Of a stretch of 48,170 nucleotides of DNA, positions 466-40,051 are shown in pieces (within the stretch, counting starts at the first letter, position 1; every line of letters starts with the position of its first letter). Made by a program: the position numbers and the translations under genes. Where the stretch lies: the NCBI GenBank assembly GCA_002439705.1, contig DJPE01000014.1, positions 321 through 48,490 on the forward strand. Reading direction: 5' to 3'. Below the pieces are notes generated by a model that was not told the DNA's origin, ran no database searches, and saw only the letters and a list, made by a program, of their open reading frames with translations. The DNA is from Christensenella sp. UBA6420 (lineage in GTDB: Bacteria > Bacillota > Clostridia > Christensenellales > DTU072).

Positions 466-2569
466 CCTTTTTCTCTTCCTGCCTTTCCGGCGCGTCGGGT
501 ACGACGGTCTTGTTACATTCCTTGTTGGTGCAGACGTATTTAGTCTTGCCGTCTTTGACTATCATTCTCATGACGTGTCTGCAATCGGGGCAGAATATCG
601 GAGCCGGCAGTTCCCAGCTCATAAAATCACATTCGGGATAATTGCTGCAGCCGTAGAATATTTTGCCGTTTTTCGTATGTTTTTTTACTATATCTCCGCC
701 GCAACGGGGGCATTTGCCGACCGACTCGACGAAGTTCTTTATGTTCTTACAACGGGGATAATTCGGACACGCCAAAAACTTGCCGTATTTGCCGCTTCTT
801 ACCACCATGTGCGCGCCGCATTTTTCGCAGATTACGTCGGTGACTTCTTCTTCGAGCTTAACCTTCTTTTCTCCTGCGTAGGCTTTGATAAGGCTCTTTT
901 CAAACGGCGGATAGAAGTCGGCTATTACTTTTTGCCACTGGGTGCCGTTTACTATCGTGTCAAGGTCGTTTTCCATCGACGCGGTGAACTTAATATCGAC
1001 TATGTCGGCGAAGTTCTTTTCCATAAACTCCACTACCGTTTCTCCTAATTGCGTAGGAACGAGCTGCTTTCCGTCTTTCGTGGTGTACTCTCTCTTGGCA
1101 AGAGTACTTACTACCGACGCATAGGTGGCCGGACGTCCGATGCCGTTTTCTTCCATAGCCTTAATGAACGTGGAATCGGTATAACGCGGGGGAGCTTTCG
1201 TAAACTTCTGCTCGCTTTTTATTTCTTTAAGATTAAGGCTTTCGCCTTCTTCGAGATTAGGCAACTTATCACTGCCTTCTTCGTCTTCTTCCTTATCGTT
1301 TTCGTACGCTACGGTATAGCCTTTGAAAATGACGGTTTTTCCCGTAATCTTAAATCCGTAGTCGCCTTCTTCGGTTGCGCCGGTTATATGAACGTTAAGT
1401 GTGTTGTAGACGGCTTCGGACATCTGACTTGCCAAAAATCTGTCGTAAATAAGCTTATAAAGTCTGTACTGATTGCGGTTAAGCATAGTTTTCAGACTCT
1501 CGGGAGTACGGGCAAGAGTAATAGGTCTTATCGCTTCGTGAGCGTCCTGTACGTTCGCACTCTTCGTGGTATAAATATTCGGCTTTTTCGGAGCGTAATC
1601 CGCACCGAAATGTTCCTTAATAAACTTTAACGCGGCGTCCTGCGCTTCGGGCGATACTCTTACCGAGTCGGTACGGATGTAAGTAACGAGAGCGGTATGT
1701 CCTTCTCCTTCCAACTCTATACCTTCGTACAGCTGCTGAGCTATTTTCATAACTTCGGGAGCGGTAATGGAAAGTCTGCTCGCTCCGTCCTGTTGCAACG
1801 TGCTGGTAGTAAAAGGCGCATTCGGTCTGGACTTGCTTACGCCCCTTTTTACCGTATCGACTTTATATAAAGCCTTCTTCAAAGCTTCGGTAATCTTATT
1901 TGCTTCGTCGCCGTTCTTAACTTTTACTTTCTTGCCGTTGAAATCGGCGAGAGCGGCTTTCATTGCGGTGACTTTGCCTTGTTTTTGCAGGTACGCAAAT
2001 ATATTCCAATATTCTTCGGGCTTAAATGCTCTTATTTCTCTTTCTCTGTCCACTATCATTTTGAGCGCAGCGCTTTGAACGCGTCCGCCCGAAAGGCCCT
2101 GTTTTATCTTCTTGTTAAGGATAGGGCTTATTTTATAGCCCACGAGTCTGTCGAGAACTCTTCTCGCCTGTTGAGCGTTGACGAGATTCATATTTATTTC
2201 TCTCGGAGTCTTTAACGCCGCGTTGACCGCGCGGGAACTGATTTCGTTAAACTCGATTCTGTTGTCGCCGTGCGGCAGTTCCAATACGTTGCTTAAATGC
2301 CAGCTTATCGCTTCCCCTTCTCTATCCGGGTCGGTTGCGAGATAAACGGCGTCGCTGTCTTTTACCGCCTGTTTAAGTCTTTTTATCAAATCCTTTTTTT
2401 CTTTGACGAGTACGTATTCGGGTTTGAAATCGTGTTCTATATCTATCCCGAGGCTCTTTTCGGGCAGGTCGCAGACGTGTCCGCCGCTCGCAAGCACCCT
2501 GAAATCTCCCCCGAGATATTTCTGAATTGTTTTCGCCTTGGTCGGCGATTCTACGATTACTAATTTCAT
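458..2569 (-). CDS. topA: DNA topoisomerase I
   Basis: TOPRIM start MKLVIVESPTKAKTIQKYLG, DPDREGE motif, and C-terminal CxxC zinc-ribbon repeats (CEKCGAHM..CPNYPRC, CPRCGG..CSNYPEC, CPDCRH..CTNKEC). I moved the start to Met5 of the track ORF; this ATG overlaps the dprA stop as TAATG. Confidence 0.95.
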   Translation of the reverse strand: MKLVIVESPTKAKTIQKYLGGDFRVLASGGHVCDLPEKSLGIDIEHDFKPEYVLVKEKKDLIKRLKQAVKDSDAVYLATDPDREGEAISWHLSNVLELPHGDNRIEFNEISSRAVNAALKTPREINMNLVNAQQARRVLDRLVGYKISPILNKKIKQGLSGGRVQSAALKMIVDREREIRAFKPEEYWNIFAYLQKQGKVTAMKAALADFNGKKVKVKNGDEANKITEALKKALYKVDTVKRGVSKSRPNAPFTTSTLQQDGASRLSITAPEVMKIAQQLYEGIELEGEGHTALVTYIRTDSVRVSPEAQDAALKFIKEHFGADYAPKKPNIYTTKSANVQDAHEAIRPITLARTPESLKTMLNRNQYRLYKLIYDRFLASQMSEAVYNTLNVHITGATEEGDYGFKITGKTVIFKGYTVAYENDKEEDEEGSDKLPNLEEGESLNLKEIKSEQKFTKAPPRYTDSTFIKAMEENGIGRPATYASVVSTLAKREYTTKDGKQLVPTQLGETVVEFMEKNFADIVDIKFTASMENDLDTIVNGTQWQKVIADFYPPFEKSLIKAYAGEKKVKLEEEVTDVICEKCGAHMVVRSGKYGKFLACPNYPRCKNIKNFVESVGKCPRCGGDIVKKHTKNGKIFYGCSNYPECDFMSWELPAPIFCPDCRHVMRMIVKDGKTKYVCTNKECNKTVVPDAPERQEEKKDE

Positions 2570-3639
2570 TATACACTCCAATAGTTATGTTTCGTTTTGT
2601 TTATAAGTCCCGCGGTTTCCATTCTCGTAAGTAGGGAATTCAACTGCGATATACTAAGGTCAACGACGTCTAAAATCTCTTCGACGTGCATTTCCCCGTT
2701 TTGTTTAAGGGCATTAAGGATAGCGTCTTCGTTAAAGTCGAGCTGTATTAACGACGGCTTTACCGTTTCTTGTTTGGTAAGTCCCAGCTCGTCGTAAATA
2801 TCGTTCACGTCGGTGACCGCTCTCGACTGACACTCCCTTATACTCTTATTCACTCCGCTCGAAGCCGCGCTGTATATGCTGCCCGGTACGCAGAACACGT
2901 CTTTGCCTTGCGCTATCGCGCTGTTTATGGTAAGCATGGTTCCGCTCTTTATTCCCGCTTCGGTGACGAGGACGCTCCGCGACAAGCCGCTTATTATTCT
3001 GTTCCTTGCGGGGAAGTTGAAGCTGTTGGCGGGAGTGCCGGGTTCGTACTCGCTTACGACGAGACCGAAACTTATTATATCACGGTAAAGCGACAAATTT
3101 TCGGGTGGATATACAATATCCACTCCGCTACCCAAAACCGCCACCGTTTTTCCGCCCGCTTTCAAAGCAGATTTATGGGCGCAGGAATCTATTCCGCGAG
3201 CCATTCCGCTCACTATCGTAAACCTGTCGCTTAAAGAAGAAACGAATTCTTCCGTCGCTCTCAACCCGTATCTCGTCGGGAAACGAGTACCGACTACCGC
3301 AAACGACGGAGTGTTCAGTAAACTTGCGTCGCCTATGCAGTAAAGGGCGAGCGGCATATCCTGATAGGGAAGAAGGCTCTTCGGATACTCTTCGTCCGGA
3401 ATCGTGACAAATCTTATGTTCTTATCGGCGAAAGAATTTTCGAGTCTGTCGAAGTCTGTGTTTTCGAGTTCCGCTTTAATTTCTATATACTCGTTAGCTG
3501 AAACGTTCCTTAACGAAACGAGAAAATTTCCGAAATCTGAAAAGTCGGCGTAAGAAACTATTTTCCTTCCCTTGACGCAGCCTATTCCCTGCGCTTTCGT
3601 AAGAGCGTAAATTATTTTTTGTTTCGTAGTCAGTTTCAA
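2569..3639 (-). CDS. dprA: DNA processing protein DprA/Smf
   Basis: 356 aa with the DprA core FAVVGTRFPTRYG...GMARGIDSCAHKSALKAGGKTVAVLGSGVDIVYPPEN. dprA-topA synteny. Confidence 0.9.
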   Translation of the reverse strand: MKLTTKQKIIYALTKAQGIGCVKGRKIVSYADFSDFGNFLVSLRNVSANEYIEIKAELENTDFDRLENSFADKNIRFVTIPDEEYPKSLLPYQDMPLALYCIGDASLLNTPSFAVVGTRFPTRYGLRATEEFVSSLSDRFTIVSGMARGIDSCAHKSALKAGGKTVAVLGSGVDIVYPPENLSLYRDIISFGLVVSEYEPGTPANSFNFPARNRIISGLSRSVLVTEAGIKSGTMLTINSAIAQGKDVFCVPGSIYSAASSGVNKSIRECQSRAVTDVNDIYDELGLTKQETVKPSLIQLDFNEDAILNALKQNGEMHVEEILDVVDLSISQLNSLLTRMETAGLINKTKHNYWSV

Positions 3640-29699: not shown

Positions 29700-31319
29700 C
29701 TATATTGCCATTTTGTGATGTAATTCGTTCAACGTTGTTATATTTGTTCTAAGACATTCATTCGGAAGATTTGCTCTTGCCATAGCTTCAGCTATGACCG
29801 GACATACTGCGTTGCCACATCTCGCCACTTGGTCTGCACGACTTATTGGTCTTCCGTTTTCATCACGGTCTATAATATAGTCATGCGGAAATCCCATGGC
29901 ATCATATAACTCTCTCGGCGTAAGCATTCTCAACCCTATGTCTGAAATAAAAAACAACTCTCCTTTTATTCTTAAAAGCAAGACCTCGTCTTCTCTAATA
30001 GAATATCCGCAAAAACTATTTAAAAGGTCTCTTATCATACTCCAGTTACCATATGCTTGCGAATTTTCGGCTTTAACAAGCAAGATGTTCGCCGCAGCAT
30101 ACTTCTCCCGTGCCATAACTGTCATTAAAGGTTCTTGTACGGACTGTCCTTTATCTGCCCCTCTAAAATCTACGAGATATGCTGCAATTAACGAATTATG
30201 GTCTATTGCCGTTACTGTCGGCAATGGCTCTGTTATTTCATTCCCATCTACTCCCGTATAATATTTTTGTATAAATGCAGAAACGACGCCTTCTCTTTCC
30301 ATTGTCGTTATCGTCGCAAGTGGTTTGCGAACGTCATGGTAATGTCCATCCCCGGAAAAATATTGTGTAAGATGTACCGCTGATAAATAATTCTTTGAAC
30401 CGGACGTTACCACAGGTAATGGTTGATTTACATCCGAACCTTTATCGTTAAAATTATTCACCATAATCGTCGGTGCTGTTGAATCAACAATAAATGGACT
30501 CTTTGACTTCAGTACAAATTTATCTACACCTAAAGCTATGCGTCTAAGCGTATTTGTCTTTAACGGACGCATACAATTAACTCCGTAAGTTTCTTTTAAT
30601 TCCTGTTTCGTAGCAAAAATCGAGTAACATGGTAATTTAAAATCGATGATATCCGCTGCAGCTTTCCACGGCTTTAATTTACCGCATCTAACTTCTATAC
30701 TATTAATCGGAGCATGTGTCTTTTTCGGGAATACAATTGGTTTGCCATCACACCGTGCGATAAGACAAAATCTCGTTCGCGTCGTTGGCGCACCATAATC
30801 GGCAGCACACAAATTCTTTGTTCCTATCTCATAACCCAAGTCCGAAAGTTGAGTCTTCCATTTATTGTAAGTTTGTCCCGCTTTGCTTTTTACAGGCTTT
30901 CCGTTCCGCACCGGTCCCCATGTTACAAATTCAGGTACATTTTCAAGCATTATGATATCAGGACGTACAGCCGCTGCCCAACGCAATACGACCCACGCAA
31001 GTCCTCTTATTTTTTTATCAACGAGCGCCGCACCCTTCGCACGCGAAAAATGTTTACAGTCGGGAGAAAACCACGCGAGACGTACATTTCGACCACGGCA
31101 AACTTCTTTCGGGTCAACAGCCCATATATCTTCACGATAATGTTCTGTGTATGGGTGGTTCATTTTATGCATCAAAATCGCACTTTCATTGTGATTTATC
31201 GCTATATCTACGGGATGCCCGGTCGCTAATTCAAGTCCTGTAGATGCGCCTCCGCCACCTGCAAAATTATCGACGATAATATCATCAAATATTCCTATCT
31301 GTTTGTTGCATCTTATCAT
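29700..31319 (-). CDS. DNA (cytosine-5)-methyltransferase, orphan, with a long variable region
   Basis: Motif I DNFAGGGGAS, motif IV FSPDCKHFS, motif VI ENVPEF, TTRTRF, motif X GNAVCP. About 290 aa lie between motif VIII and motifs IX/X. No adjacent restriction gene. Confidence 0.9.
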   Translation of the reverse strand: MIRCNKQIGIFDDIIVDNFAGGGGASTGLELATGHPVDIAINHNESAILMHKMNHPYTEHYREDIWAVDPKEVCRGRNVRLAWFSPDCKHFSRAKGAALVDKKIRGLAWVVLRWAAAVRPDIIMLENVPEFVTWGPVRNGKPVKSKAGQTYNKWKTQLSDLGYEIGTKNLCAADYGAPTTRTRFCLIARCDGKPIVFPKKTHAPINSIEVRCGKLKPWKAAADIIDFKLPCYSIFATKQELKETYGVNCMRPLKTNTLRRIALGVDKFVLKSKSPFIVDSTAPTIMVNNFNDKGSDVNQPLPVVTSGSKNYLSAVHLTQYFSGDGHYHDVRKPLATITTMEREGVVSAFIQKYYTGVDGNEITEPLPTVTAIDHNSLIAAYLVDFRGADKGQSVQEPLMTVMAREKYAAANILLVKAENSQAYGNWSMIRDLLNSFCGYSIREDEVLLLRIKGELFFISDIGLRMLTPRELYDAMGFPHDYIIDRDENGRPISRADQVARCGNAVCPVIAEAMARANLPNECLRTNITTLNELHHKMAI

Positions 31320-31524
31320 TTTTTCTTCTCCTTATTTTCTTAATTATCGCGTCCGTTATTTCTATTCCGGTAGTGATAATCACACATCCCGCTATCGGCA
31401 TATAAAGCCATAACATCGGTATATCTTTTATTTCTGCCACGTTAAGAATAAACAACGTGATTTCGATTAAGGCAAAGACTGCCGTAATAACGTTAAGAAG
31501 AATATCTTTCATTTTATTTTTCAT
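31285..31524 (-). CDS. Small membrane protein (2 TM), hypothetical
   Basis: 79 aa with hydrophobic segments ILLNVITAVFALIEITLFIL and MLWLYMPIAGCVIITTGI. Confidence 0.45.
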   Translation of the reverse strand: MKNKMKDILLNVITAVFALIEITLFILNVAEIKDIPMLWLYMPIAGCVIITTGIEITDAIIKKIRRRKNDKMQQTDRNI

Positions 31525-35657: not shown

Positions 35658-35867
35658 CTATTTCTTGAAAAGATATTCGAGGGTTAAGTCCGGGAAGTAA
35701 GTTTCGCGTATTTTAAACATTTCTCCGGACTTAAATTCACTTTTACCGAGCATTTTTAGATTAAGTCCGCGTCCCGTGATATTAAGCAACTTTGCTAATT
35801 CCGTTTGAGTAATCTTTCGTTCTTTTAGTTCCGAATATAAATTCTTATACATTTTCTTTAACTCCAA
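35658..35867 (-). CDS. Cro-like XRE-family HTH regulator
   Basis: 69 aa with ITQTELAKLLNITGRGLNLKMLGK. Met6 (start at 35852) is an alternative start. Confidence 0.6.
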   Translation of the reverse strand: MELKKMYKNLYSELKERKITQTELAKLLNITGRGLNLKMLGKSEFKSGEMFKIRETYFPDLTLEYLFKK

Positions 35868-36648
35868 AGTGTATTTTTATAAGCTCAATAAGAGCCTTGT
35901 ATTCCCTTCCGTATACGTTATTTGCGTGTGTTTCCTCTACTTTTGCGGCGAATTCATTAAGCTCGCCCGTAAAGCAACCGCAATTTACACTTAGTCCGCC
36001 ACTTTTGTTTTTAAATACAGTCGTTGTATCAATTCTTGAACCCATATTGGTAATCCAAAGAATATCGGCATCACGACAAACAAAAGCATCTCCACAAACC
36101 TTGGCATCACCGTGAACAGAACCACAGGCACGCACCCAAGCCTCACCGCAAACCTTGGCATTCCCATAAATCTGGGCATTGCCACAAATCCAAGCATTAC
36201 CGCAAATCTTAGCCTCACCGTGAACCCAAGCATCGCCGTGAACCAGAGCATAGCCGCAAACTTGAGCATTTCCGTAAACCCAAGCACTACCGAAAACCTT
36301 AGCATCTCCGTGAACCAATGCACTGCCGTAAACCCGAACAGTCTCGAAAACATGAGCATTGCCGCAAACTTGGGCATCTCCGTAAATTTGCGCGTTGTCA
36401 TAGACTTGAGAATTACTATAAACCCAAGCGTTGTCTCGAACCTTGGCATCACCATAAACCTTGGCATTGTCGTAAACTTTGGCATTGTCGTAAACCCAAG
36501 CATTGCCATATTGCGAAAGATTCTCTTCTTTCTCTATCCATCCGCCTAAATCGCCTTTCTTTACGTTGCCAAAGTCCCTGAGTGCTTCTATCTGATAGAA
36601 CGTGTGTCCGAGCCATACTTTTTTGTTTTCCGTTAAACGATATTTCAT
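35845..36648 (-). CDS. Hexapeptide-repeat (beta-helix/solenoid) protein, first gene of the leftward early transcript
   Basis: 267 aa. N-terminal KKVWLGHTFYQIEALRDFGNVKKGDLGGWIEKEENLSQ, then 25 consecutive hexads (YGNAWV YDNAKV YDNAKV YGDAKV ... CGDAFV CRDADI), then a C-terminal domain ...NCGCFTGELNEFAAKVEETHANN.... Confidence 0.8.
   Translation of the reverse strand: MKYRLTENKKVWLGHTFYQIEALRDFGNVKKGDLGGWIEKEENLSQYGNAWVYDNAKVYDNAKVYGDAKVRDNAWVYSNSQVYDNAQIYGDAQVCGNAHVFETVRVYGSALVHGDAKVFGSAWVYGNAQVCGYALVHGDAWVHGEAKICGNAWICGNAQIYGNAKVCGEAWVRACGSVHGDAKVCGDAFVCRDADILWITNMGSRIDTTTVFKNKSGGLSVNCGCFTGELNEFAAKVEETHANNVYGREYKALIELIKIHFGVKENV
36061..36510 (-). repeat. 18-bp-periodic coding repeat (25 hexapeptide units)
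   Basis: aa 47-196 of the ORF above. All three frames on both strands stay open here, which is a repeat artefact in the ORF track. Confidence 0.9.
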
Positions 36649-36811
36649 CTTACTTTCTCCTTTATGTTTTGGAAATTTTAATATCCAAATTTGGAAATCA
36701 ACTATAGTATATATCCAAGTTTGGAAGATGTCAAGAGTTTTTTTGAAAAATTCTTTACTTTTTGGAAATTATATTCCATACTAAACATAATCTATCTATG
36801 AAGGTAAATTA
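36649..36811. promoter_or_regulatory. Divergent promoter/operator region of the lysis-lysogeny switch
   Basis: Perfect palindrome tccaaatttgga (36684-36695), near-palindrome tccaagtttgga (36714-36725), and TTTGGAAAT half-sites at 36668, 36690 and 36761. -35/-10-like hexamers occur on both strands (TTGAAA at 36743; TTGATT...TAAAAT on the minus strand flanking the palindrome). Confidence 0.6.
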
Positions 36812-37108
36812 ATGGAAATAATTGAAATTAAAAAATATCTCAAAGACAATAAAATTACTTACGAAAAGTTGAGCGAACTATCCCAAGTTCCTTTAAACAC
36901 ATTAAAAAACATATTCAGCGGTCGTACGCCGACTCCCCGCATAGATACCATTCAATCCATCGAAAAAGCTCTCGGTTTGGATAACAACTCTTCTTCTGCC
37001 GCTAATACCATAAATACAGAGTTGCTTAATCTTATTCCACTGCTTACTCCTCAACAAGTTGAACAAACTGTCGACTTCGTTAAATTCTTACTTTCTAAAA
37101 ACTCTTGA
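36812..37108 (+). CDS. XRE-type HTH protein, repressor-NTD paralogue 1 (no peptidase domain)
   Basis: MEIIEIKKYLKDNKITYEKLSELSQVPLNTLKNIFSGRTPTPRIDTIQSIEKALGLD, plus a short tail ending DFVKFLLSKNS. Confidence 0.75.
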   Translation: MEIIEIKKYLKDNKITYEKLSELSQVPLNTLKNIFSGRTPTPRIDTIQSIEKALGLDNNSSSAANTINTELLNLIPLLTPQQVEQTVDFVKFLLSKNS

Positions 37109-37129
37109 CGTAGAAAAATTCTTTACTTT

Positions 37130-37447
37130 ATGGAAATAATTGAAATAAAAAAATATCTTAAAAACAATAAAATAACTTACAAAAAGTTGAGTGCCTTATC
37201 AGGTATCCCACTCACTACTCTTAAATATATATTCAGCGGTCGTACTTCAACCCCACGTATAGACACCATTCAGGCCATCGAAAAAGCTCTTAATTTTGAT
37301 AATCAGCGGGCTAAAATTGAACCTAATTTTATCTCCGACAAACAGCGTCTTCATTACCTTATAGAACAACTTCCCGACGAACTCGTTCTCCAAGTCTGTG
37401 ATTACATTTATTTTTTGCTTTCAAAAAATTCTCTATATAAACTTTAA
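37130..37447 (+). CDS. XRE-type HTH protein, repressor-NTD paralogue 2 (no peptidase domain)
   Basis: MEIIEIKKYLKNNKITYKKLSALSGIPLTTLKYIFSGRTSTPRIDTIQAIEKALNFD, with tail ...DYIYFLLSKNS. No obvious RBS. The ATG lies inside a copy of the operator segment. Confidence 0.65.
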   Translation: MEIIEIKKYLKNNKITYKKLSALSGIPLTTLKYIFSGRTSTPRIDTIQAIEKALNFDNQRAKIEPNFISDKQRLHYLIEQLPDELVLQVCDYIYFLLSKNSLYKL

Positions 37448-37462
37448 AGGAGCTAATTCCAT

Positions 37463-38062
37463 ATGGATATAACATTAATAAAAAAACATTTAAAAGCTAA
37501 TAAAATAACCTATGCTGAATTATCTGAAATGTCTGGCGTTCCTATTCAAACCATACAAAAAGTCTTCTCCGGCAATACTAAACATCCCCGCATAGACACC
37601 ATTCAGTCCATAGAGAAAGCTCTCGGTCTGGATAAGTCGTTCAGTATTTACGATATCCCCGGCATAGAACCTTTACCCGAATTCCGCTCGGTTCCTCTCG
37701 TCGGAACCATCGCTTGCGGCACGCCGACACTCGCAGAAGAGAATATCGAAGAATACGTCAAAATGAGCGACAACGTACGCGCCGATTTTGCTTTACGCTG
37801 CAAGGGCGACAGTATGATTAACGCTCGTATATTCGACGGTGATATCGTATTTATCAGACAGCAACCCGACGTCGAAAACGGCGAGATAGCAGCCGTTCTT
37901 ATAGAGAACGAAGCAACGCTTAAGCGCATATATAAATACGGCTCACGCCTTGAACTGCGCGCTGAAAATCCTACGTTTGCTCCGCTCAATTTCGAGGGCG
38001 AACAACTAAATGAAATTCGCATACTCGGAAAAGCCGTTGCTTTCATATCAACGGTTAGATAA
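37463..38062 (+). CDS. CI/LexA-like phage repressor (HTH plus S24 autopeptidase)
   Basis: The same HTH family as the two upstream ORFs, then the S24 domain: VPLVGTIACGTP, GDSM (catalytic Ser), and LKR with the Lys partner. AAAGGAG RBS. Confidence 0.85.
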   Translation: MDITLIKKHLKANKITYAELSEMSGVPIQTIQKVFSGNTKHPRIDTIQSIEKALGLDKSFSIYDIPGIEPLPEFRSVPLVGTIACGTPTLAEENIEEYVKMSDNVRADFALRCKGDSMINARIFDGDIVFIRQQPDVENGEIAAVLIENEATLKRIYKYGSRLELRAENPTFAPLNFEGEQLNEIRILGKAVAFISTVR

Positions 38063-38070
38063 ACATTAAA

Positions 38071-38104
38071 TTGACAACAAGTATAATGTACGCTATAATG
38101 TACA
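38071..38104 (+). promoter_or_regulatory. Consensus sigma-A promoter with a TGTAC(G/A) operator pair for the TA-integrase unit
   Basis: TTGACA (38071-38076), 17 nt, TATAAT (38094-38099). tgtacg at 38087 and tgtaca at 38099 are 12 bp apart. The direct repeat tataatgtac occurs twice. Confidence 0.75.
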
Positions 38105-38131
38105 TAGAATAAATATAGGAGGTAATATATT

Positions 38132-38386
38132 ATGTCTATAACTAACGCAACGACTTTACGCAAGAGTCTATTTAGCTATTTGGATGCGGCAGCTGTAAAC
38201 GATGAAAAGATAATCGTGACGACAAAAAACGGAAATGCGGCTATTGTAAGCGAAGAATACCTGCGTAATTTAGAAGAAACTTGTTACCTTTATTCTATAC
38301 CGGGCGTCCGTGATAGCATTATCGAAGGCGTAAACACGCCTTTGTCAGAATGCTCGCAGATCGATTGGAAAAAGGTGCTGAAATGA
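38132..38386 (+). CDS. yefM: Phd/YefM-family antitoxin
   Basis: 84 aa. ...LRKSLFSYLDAAAVNDEKIIVTTKNGNAAIVSEEYLRNLEETCYL is typical of YefM. AGGAGG RBS. ATGA overlap with the toxin gene. Confidence 0.8.
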   Translation: MSITNATTLRKSLFSYLDAAAVNDEKIIVTTKNGNAAIVSEEYLRNLEETCYLYSIPGVRDSIIEGVNTPLSECSQIDWKKVLK

Positions 38387-38643
38387 GCTATACCATATTA
38401 TTCACAAAACAAGGAGAAAAGGACTTATTAAAAATAGCTCAAAGTAATTTTAAGTCAAAAGCATCCAGGCTTTTGGCTGTTCTTGAAGAAGATCCTTATT
38501 CTCCGCCTTGTGAAAAACTAATAAATTTAGATTCTACATTTTCGAGACGTATAAACATTCAACATAGACTCGTTTACAAAGTCTACGAAGAGGAAAAAAT
38601 CGTCGTAATTATACGAATGTGGACTCATTACAGTGACAATTAA
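38383..38643 (+). CDS. yoeB: YoeB/Txe-family toxin
   Basis: MSYTILFTKQGEKDL...FSRRINIQHRLVYKVYEEEKIVVIIRMWTHY is the YoeB signature. I moved the start to the ATG overlapping the antitoxin stop. Confidence 0.8.
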   Translation: MSYTILFTKQGEKDLLKIAQSNFKSKASRLLAVLEEDPYSPPCEKLINLDSTFSRRINIQHRLVYKVYEEEKIVVIIRMWTHYSDN

Positions 38644-38650
38644 TTCGGGA

Positions 38651-40051
38651 ATGAATGCTGCACTATATATTCGCGTATCTACGCTTGAACAAGCAACAAA
38701 AGGATATTCTCTCGAAGCGCAACGAGAGAGACTTGAAGCATACGCAAAAAGCCAAAACTACGAGATAACGGGCGTATACACCGACGACGGTTATTCGGGC
38801 AAAAACTTATACCGCCCCGCTATCGAGCGACTGATAGAGCACGTTAAACTCGGACTAATCAACGTCGTACTCGTATACAAGCTTGACCGTTTAACGCGTA
38901 GAGTCCGCGACGTACTCGAACTCGTAGAAGACGTTTTCGCGCCTAACAACGTTCAACTTTATTCTTTACAGGAAAATATCGACGTTTCATCGCCTTTCGG
39001 CCGCGCGGCGTTAAAACTCAACGCTACGTTCTCGGAACTTGAAAGAGAAACTATCGTCGAGCGTATGATTATGGGAAAAGAACAAGCCGTAAAACAAGGT
39101 AAGTATCTTTGCCCAGGTAAAGTTGCGCCTTTCGGTTACGTCCGCAACGCCGAGACGAAACAATTCGATATCGACCCCGTCCGCGCTGATATGGTAATAA
39201 AAATATTCGACCTTTACATACAAGGTTATTCCTTTCGAAAATTGTACGATTATTGTAAAGCGAATTTCAACGATTCGTATTTCAATAATCCTATGTGCTG
39301 TAAAAGTATTATTAATCGTACTATGTACACCGGATTTTTCACTTATAAAGGCGAGCTTTATAAAGGAACGAATTACTCCCCTATTATATCCTACGACACA
39401 TATCTCCAAGCGCAGGCTAAAAAAGACGCCAATAAAAGCGTACGCACACGCTCAACTTCTCCCTATCTGCTGACGGGACTTATCTATTGCGCTCAATGCG
39501 GAAATCGTTACGTCGGCAAAACTTATAAACATAACGAAGGGACCAAAGAATACGTTTATCGCGCGTACGGTTGTGCAGCGCGAGTAAAGAACGATAAGGA
39601 CTATCACCCTGCCAAATGCACTAACTATATACACACGGCGGAAGACCTTGAAAAAAGAGTAATCGACGTAATGAAGTCGTTGCAATTCGATGGGTTCGTC
39701 GCAGGAAAATACGTATCCGGCAAAATCGAAAACGTACGCATCGCTATATCTGAATTAAAAGAGAAAAAGGAAAAGTTACTCGATTTATACCTAAGCGATA
39801 TAATAGACAAAAATAGCTATGCAAAGAAAACGTCTGATATAGATAAAGAAATCGAAAAAAATGAAATTATAATAAAAGAAGAAGAAAAACGCGTTAAAGA
39901 AACGCCCACTATAACCATCGACTATTTGAAAGAACAAAGAAACCGCTTTGACGATATGTCGCAAACAGAAAAACGCAAATTTATGGCGGTTATTATAGAT
40001 AAGATAATTCTTAACGGCAACGATATTGTCGTAAAATTCAAAGTTAAATAA
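38651..40051 (+). CDS. Large serine recombinase (phage integrase)
   Basis: MNAALYIRVSTLEQ (catalytic Ser), resolvase domain with VLVYKLDRLTRR, recombinase domain, zinc ribbon CAQCGNRY...C, and a C-terminal coiled coil. The gene ends 37 bp from the att core. The track start (GTG 38633) is an alternative. Confidence 0.9.
   Translation: MNAALYIRVSTLEQATKGYSLEAQRERLEAYAKSQNYEITGVYTDDGYSGKNLYRPAIERLIEHVKLGLINVVLVYKLDRLTRRVRDVLELVEDVFAPNNVQLYSLQENIDVSSPFGRAALKLNATFSELERETIVERMIMGKEQAVKQGKYLCPGKVAPFGYVRNAETKQFDIDPVRADMVIKIFDLYIQGYSFRKLYDYCKANFNDSYFNNPMCCKSIINRTMYTGFFTYKGELYKGTNYSPIISYDTYLQAQAKKDANKSVRTRSTSPYLLTGLIYCAQCGNRYVGKTYKHNEGTKEYVYRAYGCAARVKNDKDYHPAKCTNYIHTAEDLEKRVIDVMKSLQFDGFVAGKYVSGKIENVRIAISELKEKKEKLLDLYLSDIIDKNSYAKKTSDIDKEIEKNEIIIKEEEKRVKETPTITIDYLKEQRNRFDDMSQTEKRKFMAVIIDKIILNGNDIVVKFKVK

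Follow-up and report, generated by a model that had tools for sequence, protein, structure and literature searches.

Lambda CI and LexA, SinR of Bacillus subtilis, the 434 repressor, ImmR/ImmA of ICEBs1 and the second repressors of certain mycobacteriophages are the described systems with which we compare a tandem array of three repressor-type genes. The array lies at positions 36812-38062 of a 48,170-nucleotide stretch of Christensenella sp. UBA6420 (contig DJPE01000014.1, positions 321-48,490; this whole stretch is called the window below). The first, second and third open reading frames (ORFs) of the array are referred to as genes A, B and C, C being the most distal. L followed by three digits is a working label for a related phage locus, and P followed by four digits is one for a related protein.

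Gene C resembles the genes of lambda CI and LexA in encoding an N-terminal helix-turn-helix (HTH) domain, a linker and an S24 domain with a Ser/Lys dyad and an aligned scissile site, and it resembles lambda CI also in its position, divergent from the early operon and with operators that overlap the early promoter. It differs from them in that its scissile pair is Cys-Gly and not Ala-Gly, that its HTH is of the 434/Cro HTH_3 type, and that it is the third cistron, after two paralogues that lack S24. A and B are like SinR in having ~100 residues, an XRE HTH, a flexible linker and two C-terminal helices, and they likewise belong to a paralogue set with related tails, as SinR does with SlrR. However, they sit in a phage immunity operon and not in a chromosomal developmental switch, with no significant sequence membership, and no SinI-like antagonist devoid of an HTH was found. 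As for the 434 repressor, we take its register (positions 16-17, 28-30 and 33, Gly37 and the ...P-R... loop at 42-43) to line up with A, B and C, whose variable positions 28, 29, 32 and 33 are presumably the base-contacting ones in 434. 434 Cro (2cro) was among the fold matches of A, but by sequence the present proteins form a separate family, and the operators here are 16-18-bp dyads with other half-sites. The related locus L115 is like ImmR/ImmA in having a short repressor followed by Peptidase_M78 in the same slot, whereas the window has no M78 gene, C occupies that slot, and A and B have no evident inactivating partner.

In the one experimentally demonstrated precedent, mycobacteriophage Mcgavigan, an acquired Bxb1-like second repressor confers heterotypic immunity, and lysogeny does not require it (PMC12700041). 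A second repressor that targets other phages, as in Mcgavigan, Fruitloop and LRRHood (PMC12700041), is the function predicted for A. The extra gene of Mcgavigan is no relative of the resident repressor and has a separate operon and its own operator (PMC12700041); here, in contrast, the extra genes are paralogues of the resident one, stacked in its operon with hairpin and S24 swapped, with up to three copies in a stack or fusion and a function that is predicted. The parts of the arrangement are ordinary (XRE HTH, S24, an operon in CI position); what is new is the stacking of paralogous repressors with swapped effectors in one immunity operon, and no paper describing such paralogue stacks was found in the literature searched.

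Our preferred reading, held tentatively and at somewhat less than even confidence, is that C would be the resident SOS-cleavable repressor and that A, made alongside it and not open to cleavage, would be a guest repressor that widens immunity to take in heteroimmune relatives, with B left unassigned.

Three repressor paralogues in one reading frame

Gene A (36812-37108, forward strand) encodes 98 aa with an HTH, a linker and a helical hairpin, gene B (37130-37447, forward) 105 aa with an HTH and a hairpin, and gene C (37463-38062, forward) 199 aa with an HTH and an S24 domain. The start codons of A and B are 318 nt apart and those of B and C 333 nt, and the repeat finder placed a 176-nt direct-repeat family at 36809, 37127 and 37460 (identities of 78% and 68%). 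All three proteins matched Pfam HTH_3 (Cro/C1-type; PF01381; 32.0, 35.7 and 39.3 bits for A, B and C, cut-off 23), and Peptidase_S24 was matched by C alone; A and B gave no S24 match at E <= 0.01 and both end after a helical hairpin of 30-40 residues. NCBIfam gave no match for A or B. Over the first 57 residues, identity is 81% between A and B, 68% between A and C and 61% between B and C. The recognition helices differ: LNTLKNIF in A (L28-N29-T30-K32-N33), LTTLKYIF in B (L28-T29-T30-K32-Y33) and IQTIQKVF in C (I28-Q29-T30-Q32-K33). The C-termini of A and B read ...FLLSKNS and ...FLLSKNSLYKL. A first-pass annotation made from the letters had described three HTH paralogues spaced by about 320-330 bp, with S24 on the last only, three different recognition helices and a shared ...FLLSKNS ending of the first two, and the domain searches and measurements bear this out.

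Among the HTH domains of A, B and C, Ks is saturated (1.3-1.8) while Ka/Ks is 0.10-0.20, which indicates that the three copies are old and have been kept under purifying selection as coding sequence. Between A and B the tails have diverged far more (Ka 0.63) than the HTH domains (Ka 0.13). The three genes lie in one reading frame. A and B are divided by one TGA and seven sense codons (...SKNS-stop-RRKILYF-MEII...), and two stops stand between B and C (...YKL-stop-RS-stop-FH-MDIT...); the shared frame suggests a gene for a poly-HTH protein that was split or is read through. A has the Shine-Dalgarno GAAGG and C has AAGGAG, and the promoter scan found no terminator between A, B and C.

The assembly is supported by Logan contigs of another run (X1), in which the joins from scaffold to A and from B to C were matched at 100% identity; X1 is a low-depth assembly, and the A-B junction lies outside the independent contig coverage. 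A variant of ~95% identity (X2) carries the B-C junction too. The GC content of A, B and the HTH part of C is 33-35%, that of the S24 part of C 48% and that of the window 43%, a contrast that would fit a mosaic in which the HTH and S24 modules have separate origins.

Gene C and the candidate operators of the resident switch

C matched Peptidase_S24 (PF00717) over positions 1-116/116 of the profile (96.2 bits, E 1e-27) and NCBIfam lexA (TIGR00498) at 113.4 bits against a cut-off of 110.95. In the phmmer alignment to E. coli LexA chains the catalytic residues fall in GDS117M and TLK154R (Ser117, codon 37811-37813; Lys154, codon 37922-37924), and IA-C85-G86 of C aligns with the scissile bond VA-A84-G85 of LexA (Cys85-Gly86, codons 37715-37720). 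The Cys-Gly pair is presumably the UmuD variant.

A, B and C are read as the immunity operon of a Christensenellales prophage. Their layout is that expected of a CI-position operon: they lie on the integrase side, divergent from the early operon, and repeated dyads cover the early promoter. The divergent promoter/operator region of 163 bp (36649-36811) follows a scaffold that is conserved in the phage family. When the upstream regions of about 30 loci were aligned by eye, the order was a leftward -10, an operator, cTTGTCAAg (the leftward -35), a T-rich stretch, a rightward -35, a second operator and a T-run with the -10. The predicted early (lytic) promoter of the window (36706-36734, reverse strand) has TTGACA at 36734-36729, a spacer of N17 and TATACT at 36711-36706, with 11/12 consensus matches, and takes the position of the TTGACA-N17-TATAAT promoter of the relatives. 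Two candidate operators adjoin it. O1 (36681-36698; ATATCCA-AATT-TGGAAAT) is an 18-bp dyad just 3' of the early -10, over the start site, and O2 (36711-36728; ATATCCA-AGTT-TGGAAGA) fills the spacer of the early promoter. In the whole 48-kb window, TCCA-N4-TGGA occurs at O1 and O2 only, and the O1-type dyad is found also in L118 (ATTTCCA-AACT-TGGAAAT), L085 and L114.

The half-site TTGGAAAT has eight matches in the window, three of which fall within 36669-36769 (~100 bp). One of these is an extra half-site at 36669-36676 (forward), left of O1; another, at 36762-36769, lies in the spacer of the predicted maintenance promoter for A-B-C (36754-36782, forward; -35 TTTACT at 36754-36759, N17, -10 CATACT at 36777-36782). 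This layout matches L115 (TTTACT-ttttggaatttttttt c-TATACT), L086 and L091; the promoter scan also gave alternative calls at the maintenance promoter. Across all intergenic DNA of the window, the remaining dyads are hairpins that are rich in GC and look like terminators, and no second operator class for A or B appeared among them.

Further repeats were seen around the switch. A palindrome TCCATATGGA (ATTCCA-TA-TGGAT) at 37458-37467 spans the start codon of C, with operator-like arms and a centre of 2 nt, not 4. A perfect 13-nt inverted repeat pairs GTCAAGAGTTTTT at 36730-36742, in the early -35 region, with AAAAACTCTTGAC at 37097-37109, the last codons and stop of A; this may be a recombination substrate or chance. 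The AAAAACTCTTGAC-type 3' end is present also in P0002 of L002, where the cassette is oppositely oriented relative to the early genes.

Recognition helix and operator class in related loci

Comparison of the family loci showed that the half-sites vary between phages and follow helix residue 29. Where an Asn29 protein is the sole repressor, the half-sites end in ...CAC in 5/5 loci (L002, L103, L104, L110 and L111). GTG-N10-CAC dyads stand beside the Asn29 repressor in the first four of these and a variant form in L111, the operators being, for example, GTGTTAATGTTAACAC in L002, GTGTCTTATCAAACAC in L103 and GTGTCATATTTGCCAC in L110. Gln29 goes with TTGGA(A)AT half-sites in L085, L089, L115 and L118 and with TTGGAC/T in L090, and Gly29 with CGAC or (T)AGAC in L001, L083 and L109. 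The Thr29 proteins of L113 (S24 form) and L114 (short form) have the same helix, KTTLTN, and the same operator type, TTTGGAAA(T), i.e. TTGGAAAT-type.

Protein C belongs to the Gln29 class. The short protein P0034 has a DNA-binding segment, VPIQTIQKVFSGNTKHPRIDT, exactly as in C, and its locus, L118, has both the dyad ATTTCCA-AACT-TGGAAAT and TTTGGAAAT in the maintenance-promoter spacer, which is the layout of the window. Because its helix is identical to that of P0034 and the operators match those of L118, C is predicted to be the cognate, SOS-cleavable resident repressor of O1/O2, dyads of the type ATWTCCA-N4-TGGAAAT. In an unbiased comparison of repeated 6-mers, the switch of the window clustered with L085, L114, L115 and L118, and apart from every Asn29 locus.

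Protein A, on the other hand, is of the Asn29 class: its segment V26-T46 (helix and flanks) is identical to that of P0002. There are no GTG-N10-CAC dyads anywhere in the window, and TTWAACAC occurs in it only within coding sequence. Thus A appears to be an extra repressor beside a cognate one, with a predicted operator that is absent here and present in other phages, an assignment that rests on the co-variation of helix and operator. Among the roles that the first-pass annotation had offered for the short paralogues, that of extra immunity specificities is accordingly favoured for A at least, the local operators being of C's class and the CAC dyads lacking. B (Thr29/Tyr33) is left without a class, because Thr29 in L113/L114 also pairs with TTGGAAAT-type operators.

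The helix codons P-L-N-T of gene A (CCT TTA AAC ACA, 36893-36900) themselves spell TTAAACAC, the Asn29-class half-site of L103; this single half-site inside coding sequence is probably a coincidence. A GTG...CAC palindrome, GTGATAATCACAC, at 31373 is nominally intergenic and was discarded, as it lies inside the ORF of a 79-aa membrane protein.

Gene A and the family of short repressors

Searching with A as query yielded 30 relatives (93-128 aa), in which the N-terminal 57 residues are conserved (...P-L-N-T-L-K-N-I-F-S-G-R-T-P-x-P-R-I-D-T-x-Q-A-I-E-K-A-L-G-L) and the helical C-termini are variable. A profile search of 1.84 billion representatives gave 758 members at E <= 1e-10. Metagenome contigs yielded five loci only, IMG/VR contributed 20 further ones, and genome contigs searched with A as query gave 259 pattern matches, none of which was confirmed. 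With C as query, genome contigs gave 79 loci, nearly all of which shared the S24 half alone, and the array was present in none. Blastn of 36500-38700 against GenBank phages returned short S24 or solenoid fragments only and no relative, and the exact A-B junction was not found in GTDB representative genomes. The helix LNTLKN is the commonest, in 33 of ~190 domains, in a family sample that is biased towards A; a guest repressor of that class would cover the largest number of competitors.

A and B are members of this rare family of phage repressors of roughly 95-130 residues, which consist of an HTH, a linker and a helical hairpin that may be SinR-like. The AlphaFold2 model of A (pLDDT 84) has HTH helices at 3-12, 17-24, 28-36 and 44-53, a disordered linker at 54-68 and hairpin helices at 69-77 and 80-96. 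Its top fold match was SinR (1b0n_A), a weak one (E 0.037, TM 0.48, rmsd 10 A over 102 columns) in which the high rmsd is due to the flexible linker, and the family profile gave a marginal SinR match in the PDB (positions 4-95, E 0.004). The tails of A and B had no Pfam SinI match; the sole tail match was to DUF2281, for B, below threshold (18.5 against 26.5 bits).

L001, L103, L104 and L109 each have a single family repressor, of 98-116 aa, whose gene immediately precedes that of the integrase and diverges from Cro-like/early genes, and the short repressor of L106 is likewise beside the integrase (135 nt of upstream sequence covered). Since these sole short repressors take the position of CI, the short form would be a class of stand-alone immunity repressor and not a truncated CI. 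The effector module is interchangeable in the family: L113 (S24) and L114 (short) agree in helix and operator type, and the short P0034 has the DNA-binding segment of C. In L115 (4001-7051), a close relative of the lysogeny module, the short repressor is followed, in this order, by Peptidase_M78 (ImmA-like), an MNT/HEPN-type toxin-antitoxin pair and a 472-aa serine recombinase. This layout indicates that the slot between repressor and integrase takes interchangeable toxin-antitoxin pairs, and the module for repressor inactivation is, as judged from the domains, interchangeable as well, being S24 in cis or M78 in trans.

Gene B

B follows A after an in-frame spacer of 21 nt (37109-37129, forward). 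As had been remarked from the letters, it lacks an obvious ribosome-binding site (RBS): ...aaaattctttacttt leads directly to the ATG, with no purine-rich Shine-Dalgarno. A 28-nt direct repeat covers this junction, 37113-37140 being a 26/28 copy of the maintenance -35/operator segment at 36745-36772. The copy runs into the start codon of B (TTGGAAAT vs ATGGAAAT), joined at the TGGAAAT that is common to operator and start, and B looks like a former cassette gene that would have lost its -10, leader and RBS. A third, weaker copy of the repeat lies at 36660-36680. A promoter before B (TAGAAA-N18-AATAAT, or TTGACG with a spacing of 17) was considered and rejected, because the possible -10 hexamers, which fall within the ORF, are poor.

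TGA followed by C is the weakest termination context in E. coli. Behind this TGA-C, synthesis of B may depend on re-initiation or on read-through that yields an A-B fusion, and B is probably weakly translated. A natural fusion, P0043, has the layout HTH-tail-linker-HTH that such an A-B read-through protein would have. Among 5.8 billion proteins, the search for homologues of B returned only B itself and A. In the X2 variant the covered 3' part of B (from 37239) is intact, and five substitutions lead to A49S and D70E. The role of B may be that of a third specificity or of a co-repressor of the resident switch, or the gene may be in decay.

Stacks and fusions in other phages

At about 6 of the ~32 distinct family loci, two or more family repressors are encoded. 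In L116/L117 a short Gln29 protein is encoded 11 nt upstream of an S24 protein with Ser29, followed by the integrase, and the local operators are GTATAC/GTAGAC, not of the Gln29 type. On this pairing of helix and site, the order is the same as that proposed for the window, guest first and cognate S24 protein last. L085 has two short paralogues in tandem, L110 also has a stack, and L201 has three tandem genes with four HTH domains in total, all three genes carrying the same tail type. There are, in addition, single proteins with 2-4 tandem HTH domains, different helices and one C-terminal tail (P0042-P0049 and P0078). L199 encodes a fusion protein in which an Asn29 HTH precedes an RSTITN HTH, and the class of the latter suits the local TGGA(A/C)T operators. 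The multi-HTH genes, including those of L199, L200 and L201, adjoin integrases, and the more distant P0052 and P0053 have six and eight matched stretches.

L002 encodes an S24 CI whose linker and S24 domain share ~85% identity with those of C (estimated by eye). Two complete scaffolds lie at 2330-3110 of this locus, with TTAACAC sites before the short P0002 and T[AT][TC]GATG sites before the early genes. The possibility that the short paralogue is the Cro of this phage was rejected, as P0002 has its own complete scaffold; P0002 with that scaffold is better read as a putative extra immunity cassette that was inserted. The S24 CI and two small membrane-protein genes are found further left of the scaffolds.

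Discussion

According to the proposed mechanism, the maintenance promoter (36754-36782) would transcribe A-B-C rightward in the lysogen. C would hold O1 and O2, which cover the spacer and the start site of the early promoter, and would so keep the lytic genes shut, while the TTGGAAAT half-site in the maintenance promoter could allow C to regulate its own synthesis. RecA-stimulated self-cleavage of C, at Cys85-Gly86 through Ser117/Lys154, would then lead to induction of the prophage. A would dimerise through its hairpin and, without a cognate site in its own prophage, would bind the GTG...CAC operators of incoming Asn29-class relatives and shut their early promoters on superinfection. As A is not cleavable, its protection would persist during SOS. 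Little B would be made, either through re-initiation or, by read-through, as part of an A-B protein with two HTHs.

Several points weigh against this proposal. A adjoins the operators, which in single-repressor loci is the position of the cognate repressor. The putative target phages of A are deduced from metagenomic loci that are not linked to a host, and a search of RNA runs found no run containing the array locus. The code that links helix to operator is imperfect: the helix ISTIKK goes with GGAAC/TGAAC half-sites in L086 and with TATAC/TAGAC at the S24 protein of L116, and TTGGAAAT-type operators occur with two helix types, Gln29 and the Thr29 of L113/L114. B, which has neither a Shine-Dalgarno nor relatives, could by its Thr29 suit the resident operators. 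Finally, the HTH domains joined in one protein might just as well work together on the DNA of the phage that encodes them.

Several of these points lend themselves to a different explanation, in which the targets of A, B or both are the resident operators, or half-sites at the start codons of A and B themselves, such as ATGGAAAT. As co-repressors that resist cleavage, they would then determine the threshold for induction or maintain part of the repression once C is cleaved. The promoter-proximal position of A, the resemblance of B's Thr29 to KTTLTN of L113/L114 with their TTTGGAAA(T) operators, the discrepancy between L086 and L116, and the recurrence of TGGAAAT at the start codons of A and B and in the 28-nt repeat would all fit. 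We nevertheless consider this explanation unlikely. The helix of A with its flanks pairs with ...CAC in all five sole-repressor loci and never otherwise with GGAAAT sites, and in L116 and L199, too, the promoter-proximal HTH mismatches the local operators. Moreover, if a stable, non-cleavable repressor of the same specificity were made from the same promoter and better placed, C would gain nothing from its S24 domain, which is nevertheless fully intact. The earlier suggestion of non-cleavable repressors of the same phage may still hold for B, whose Thr29 is like that of L113/L114 with TTGGAAAT-type operators.

It is less probable still that A and/or B are functionless leftovers of a split multi-HTH repressor or of recombination between immunity cassettes. 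Such an origin would account for the single frame of the three ORFs, for a B that has neither a Shine-Dalgarno nor a promoter of its own, a 5' flank made of a promoter fragment fused at the TGGAAAT microhomology, and no relative but A among the 5.8 billion proteins, and for the absence of the array junction from GTDB representative genomes. However, A and B are both intact after a saturated Ks, with Ka/Ks of 0.10, and the part of B covered in the ~95% variant is intact from 37239 on, with A49S and D70E only. A retains a usable RBS and a high-confidence fold, and stacks recur in independent phages.

The first-pass annotation had also considered heterodimers with CI. Pairing of C with A or B was rejected, since a hairpin on the one side and S24 on the other leave no common oligomerisation module; A-B heteromers are possible. 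A SinR/SlrR-like network in which A and B, perhaps as the A-B fusion, heteromerise through their hairpins and tune the switch from hybrid operators or by titrating each other or an antirepressor is the least probable of the explanations considered: SinR is closest to A and B in architecture and fold, the two have a common tail motif (...F/Y-x-x-F-L-L-S-K-N-S), the stacked genes of L201 have one tail type, and A and B are in frame across a single UGA-C with P0043 as a natural HTH-tail-linker-HTH counterpart, but C has no such tail, so that the cognate repressor cannot join the network, the tails have diverged in the way that avoidance of cross-dimerisation predicts (Ka 0.63, against 0.13 for the HTH), hybrid (CAC + GGAA) dyads are absent from the window, and Pfam SinI was not matched.

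If A is a guest repressor beside the resident C, as we prefer, the findings in other phages would allow a wider proposal, which we regard as possible but doubtful. Immunity in this group of gut Clostridia phages would be modular and stackable: on a shared scaffold with exchangeable half-sites, helix residues 28, 29, 32 and 33 would set the specificity, and the effectors (hairpin, S24 or an ImmA partner) would be exchangeable. Prophages would gather HTH specificities as tandem genes, three in the present case, or as proteins with 2-4 domains, each extra domain silencing the early promoter of another competitor. They would so acquire an "immunity array", which can be likened to the orphan immunity-gene arrays of polymorphic toxin loci, and leaky read-through of UGA-C might link A and B into a two-headed repressor.

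Were the stacked paralogues guest repressors, superinfection immunity in abundant uncultured gut phages would be a multi-specific and extendable trait that could be read from sequence, helix class against operator class, and prophage-phage exclusion would become predictable in Christensenellales, Oscillospiraceae and related communities. The family would amount to a set of natural orthogonal repressor/operator pairs on a common promoter scaffold. Heterotypic immunity through acquired repressors would extend from mycobacteriophages to Firmicutes phages, with a new route of acquisition by paralogue stacking and domain fusion inside the immunity operon. Should A and B act on the resident switch instead, the locus would exemplify an SOS-inducible repressor that is buffered by paralogues resistant to cleavage, which would bear on the setting of induction thresholds.

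Neighbouring genes of the prophage

The prophage of the window lies within a Christensenellales chromosome. The TopA encoded in its flank shares 96% identity with that of Christensenella-like metagenome-assembled genomes, and host genes, including those for DnaE and an ABC transporter, lie to the right. Inside the prophage are genes for a terminase, a collagen-repeat fibre protein and a C5-methylase. The array is placed between the divergent control region and a toxin-antitoxin pair followed by a serine integrase. The pair consists of a Phd/YefM antitoxin (38132-38386, forward) and a YoeB/ParE-like toxin (38350-38643, forward), both assigned by Pfam, and the large serine recombinase (38633-40051, forward; Pfam Resolvase/Recombinase/Zn_ribbon_recom, phrog_95) is the integrase at the right end of the prophage. 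A separate predicted promoter, TTGACA-N17-TATAAT at 38071-38099 (forward), with 12/12 consensus matches, would serve the pair and the integrase. Within 38060-38131, two copies of the direct repeat TATAATGTAC and an ATGTACG/TGTACAT dyad overlap the -10 of this promoter; together they are probably the antitoxin operator.

On the other side of the control region, the first early gene (35845-36648, reverse) encodes a 267-aa beta-solenoid protein (YdcK-type/hexapeptide repeats; phrog_7964), and the next (35658-35867, reverse) a 69-aa Cro-like HTH protein. Homologues of the 69-aa protein and of an 84-aa protein are present in L002. PADLOC gave no defence-system match for A, B, C, the toxin-antitoxin pair or the solenoid protein. 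The solenoid gene has an 18-nt periodic DNA repeat over 36080-36529 and is an unusual opening gene for a lytic operon. Further left, at 29700-31524, the prophage encodes a C-5 cytosine DNA methylase of 539 aa, with the ORF of the 79-aa membrane protein (31285-31524) upstream of it.

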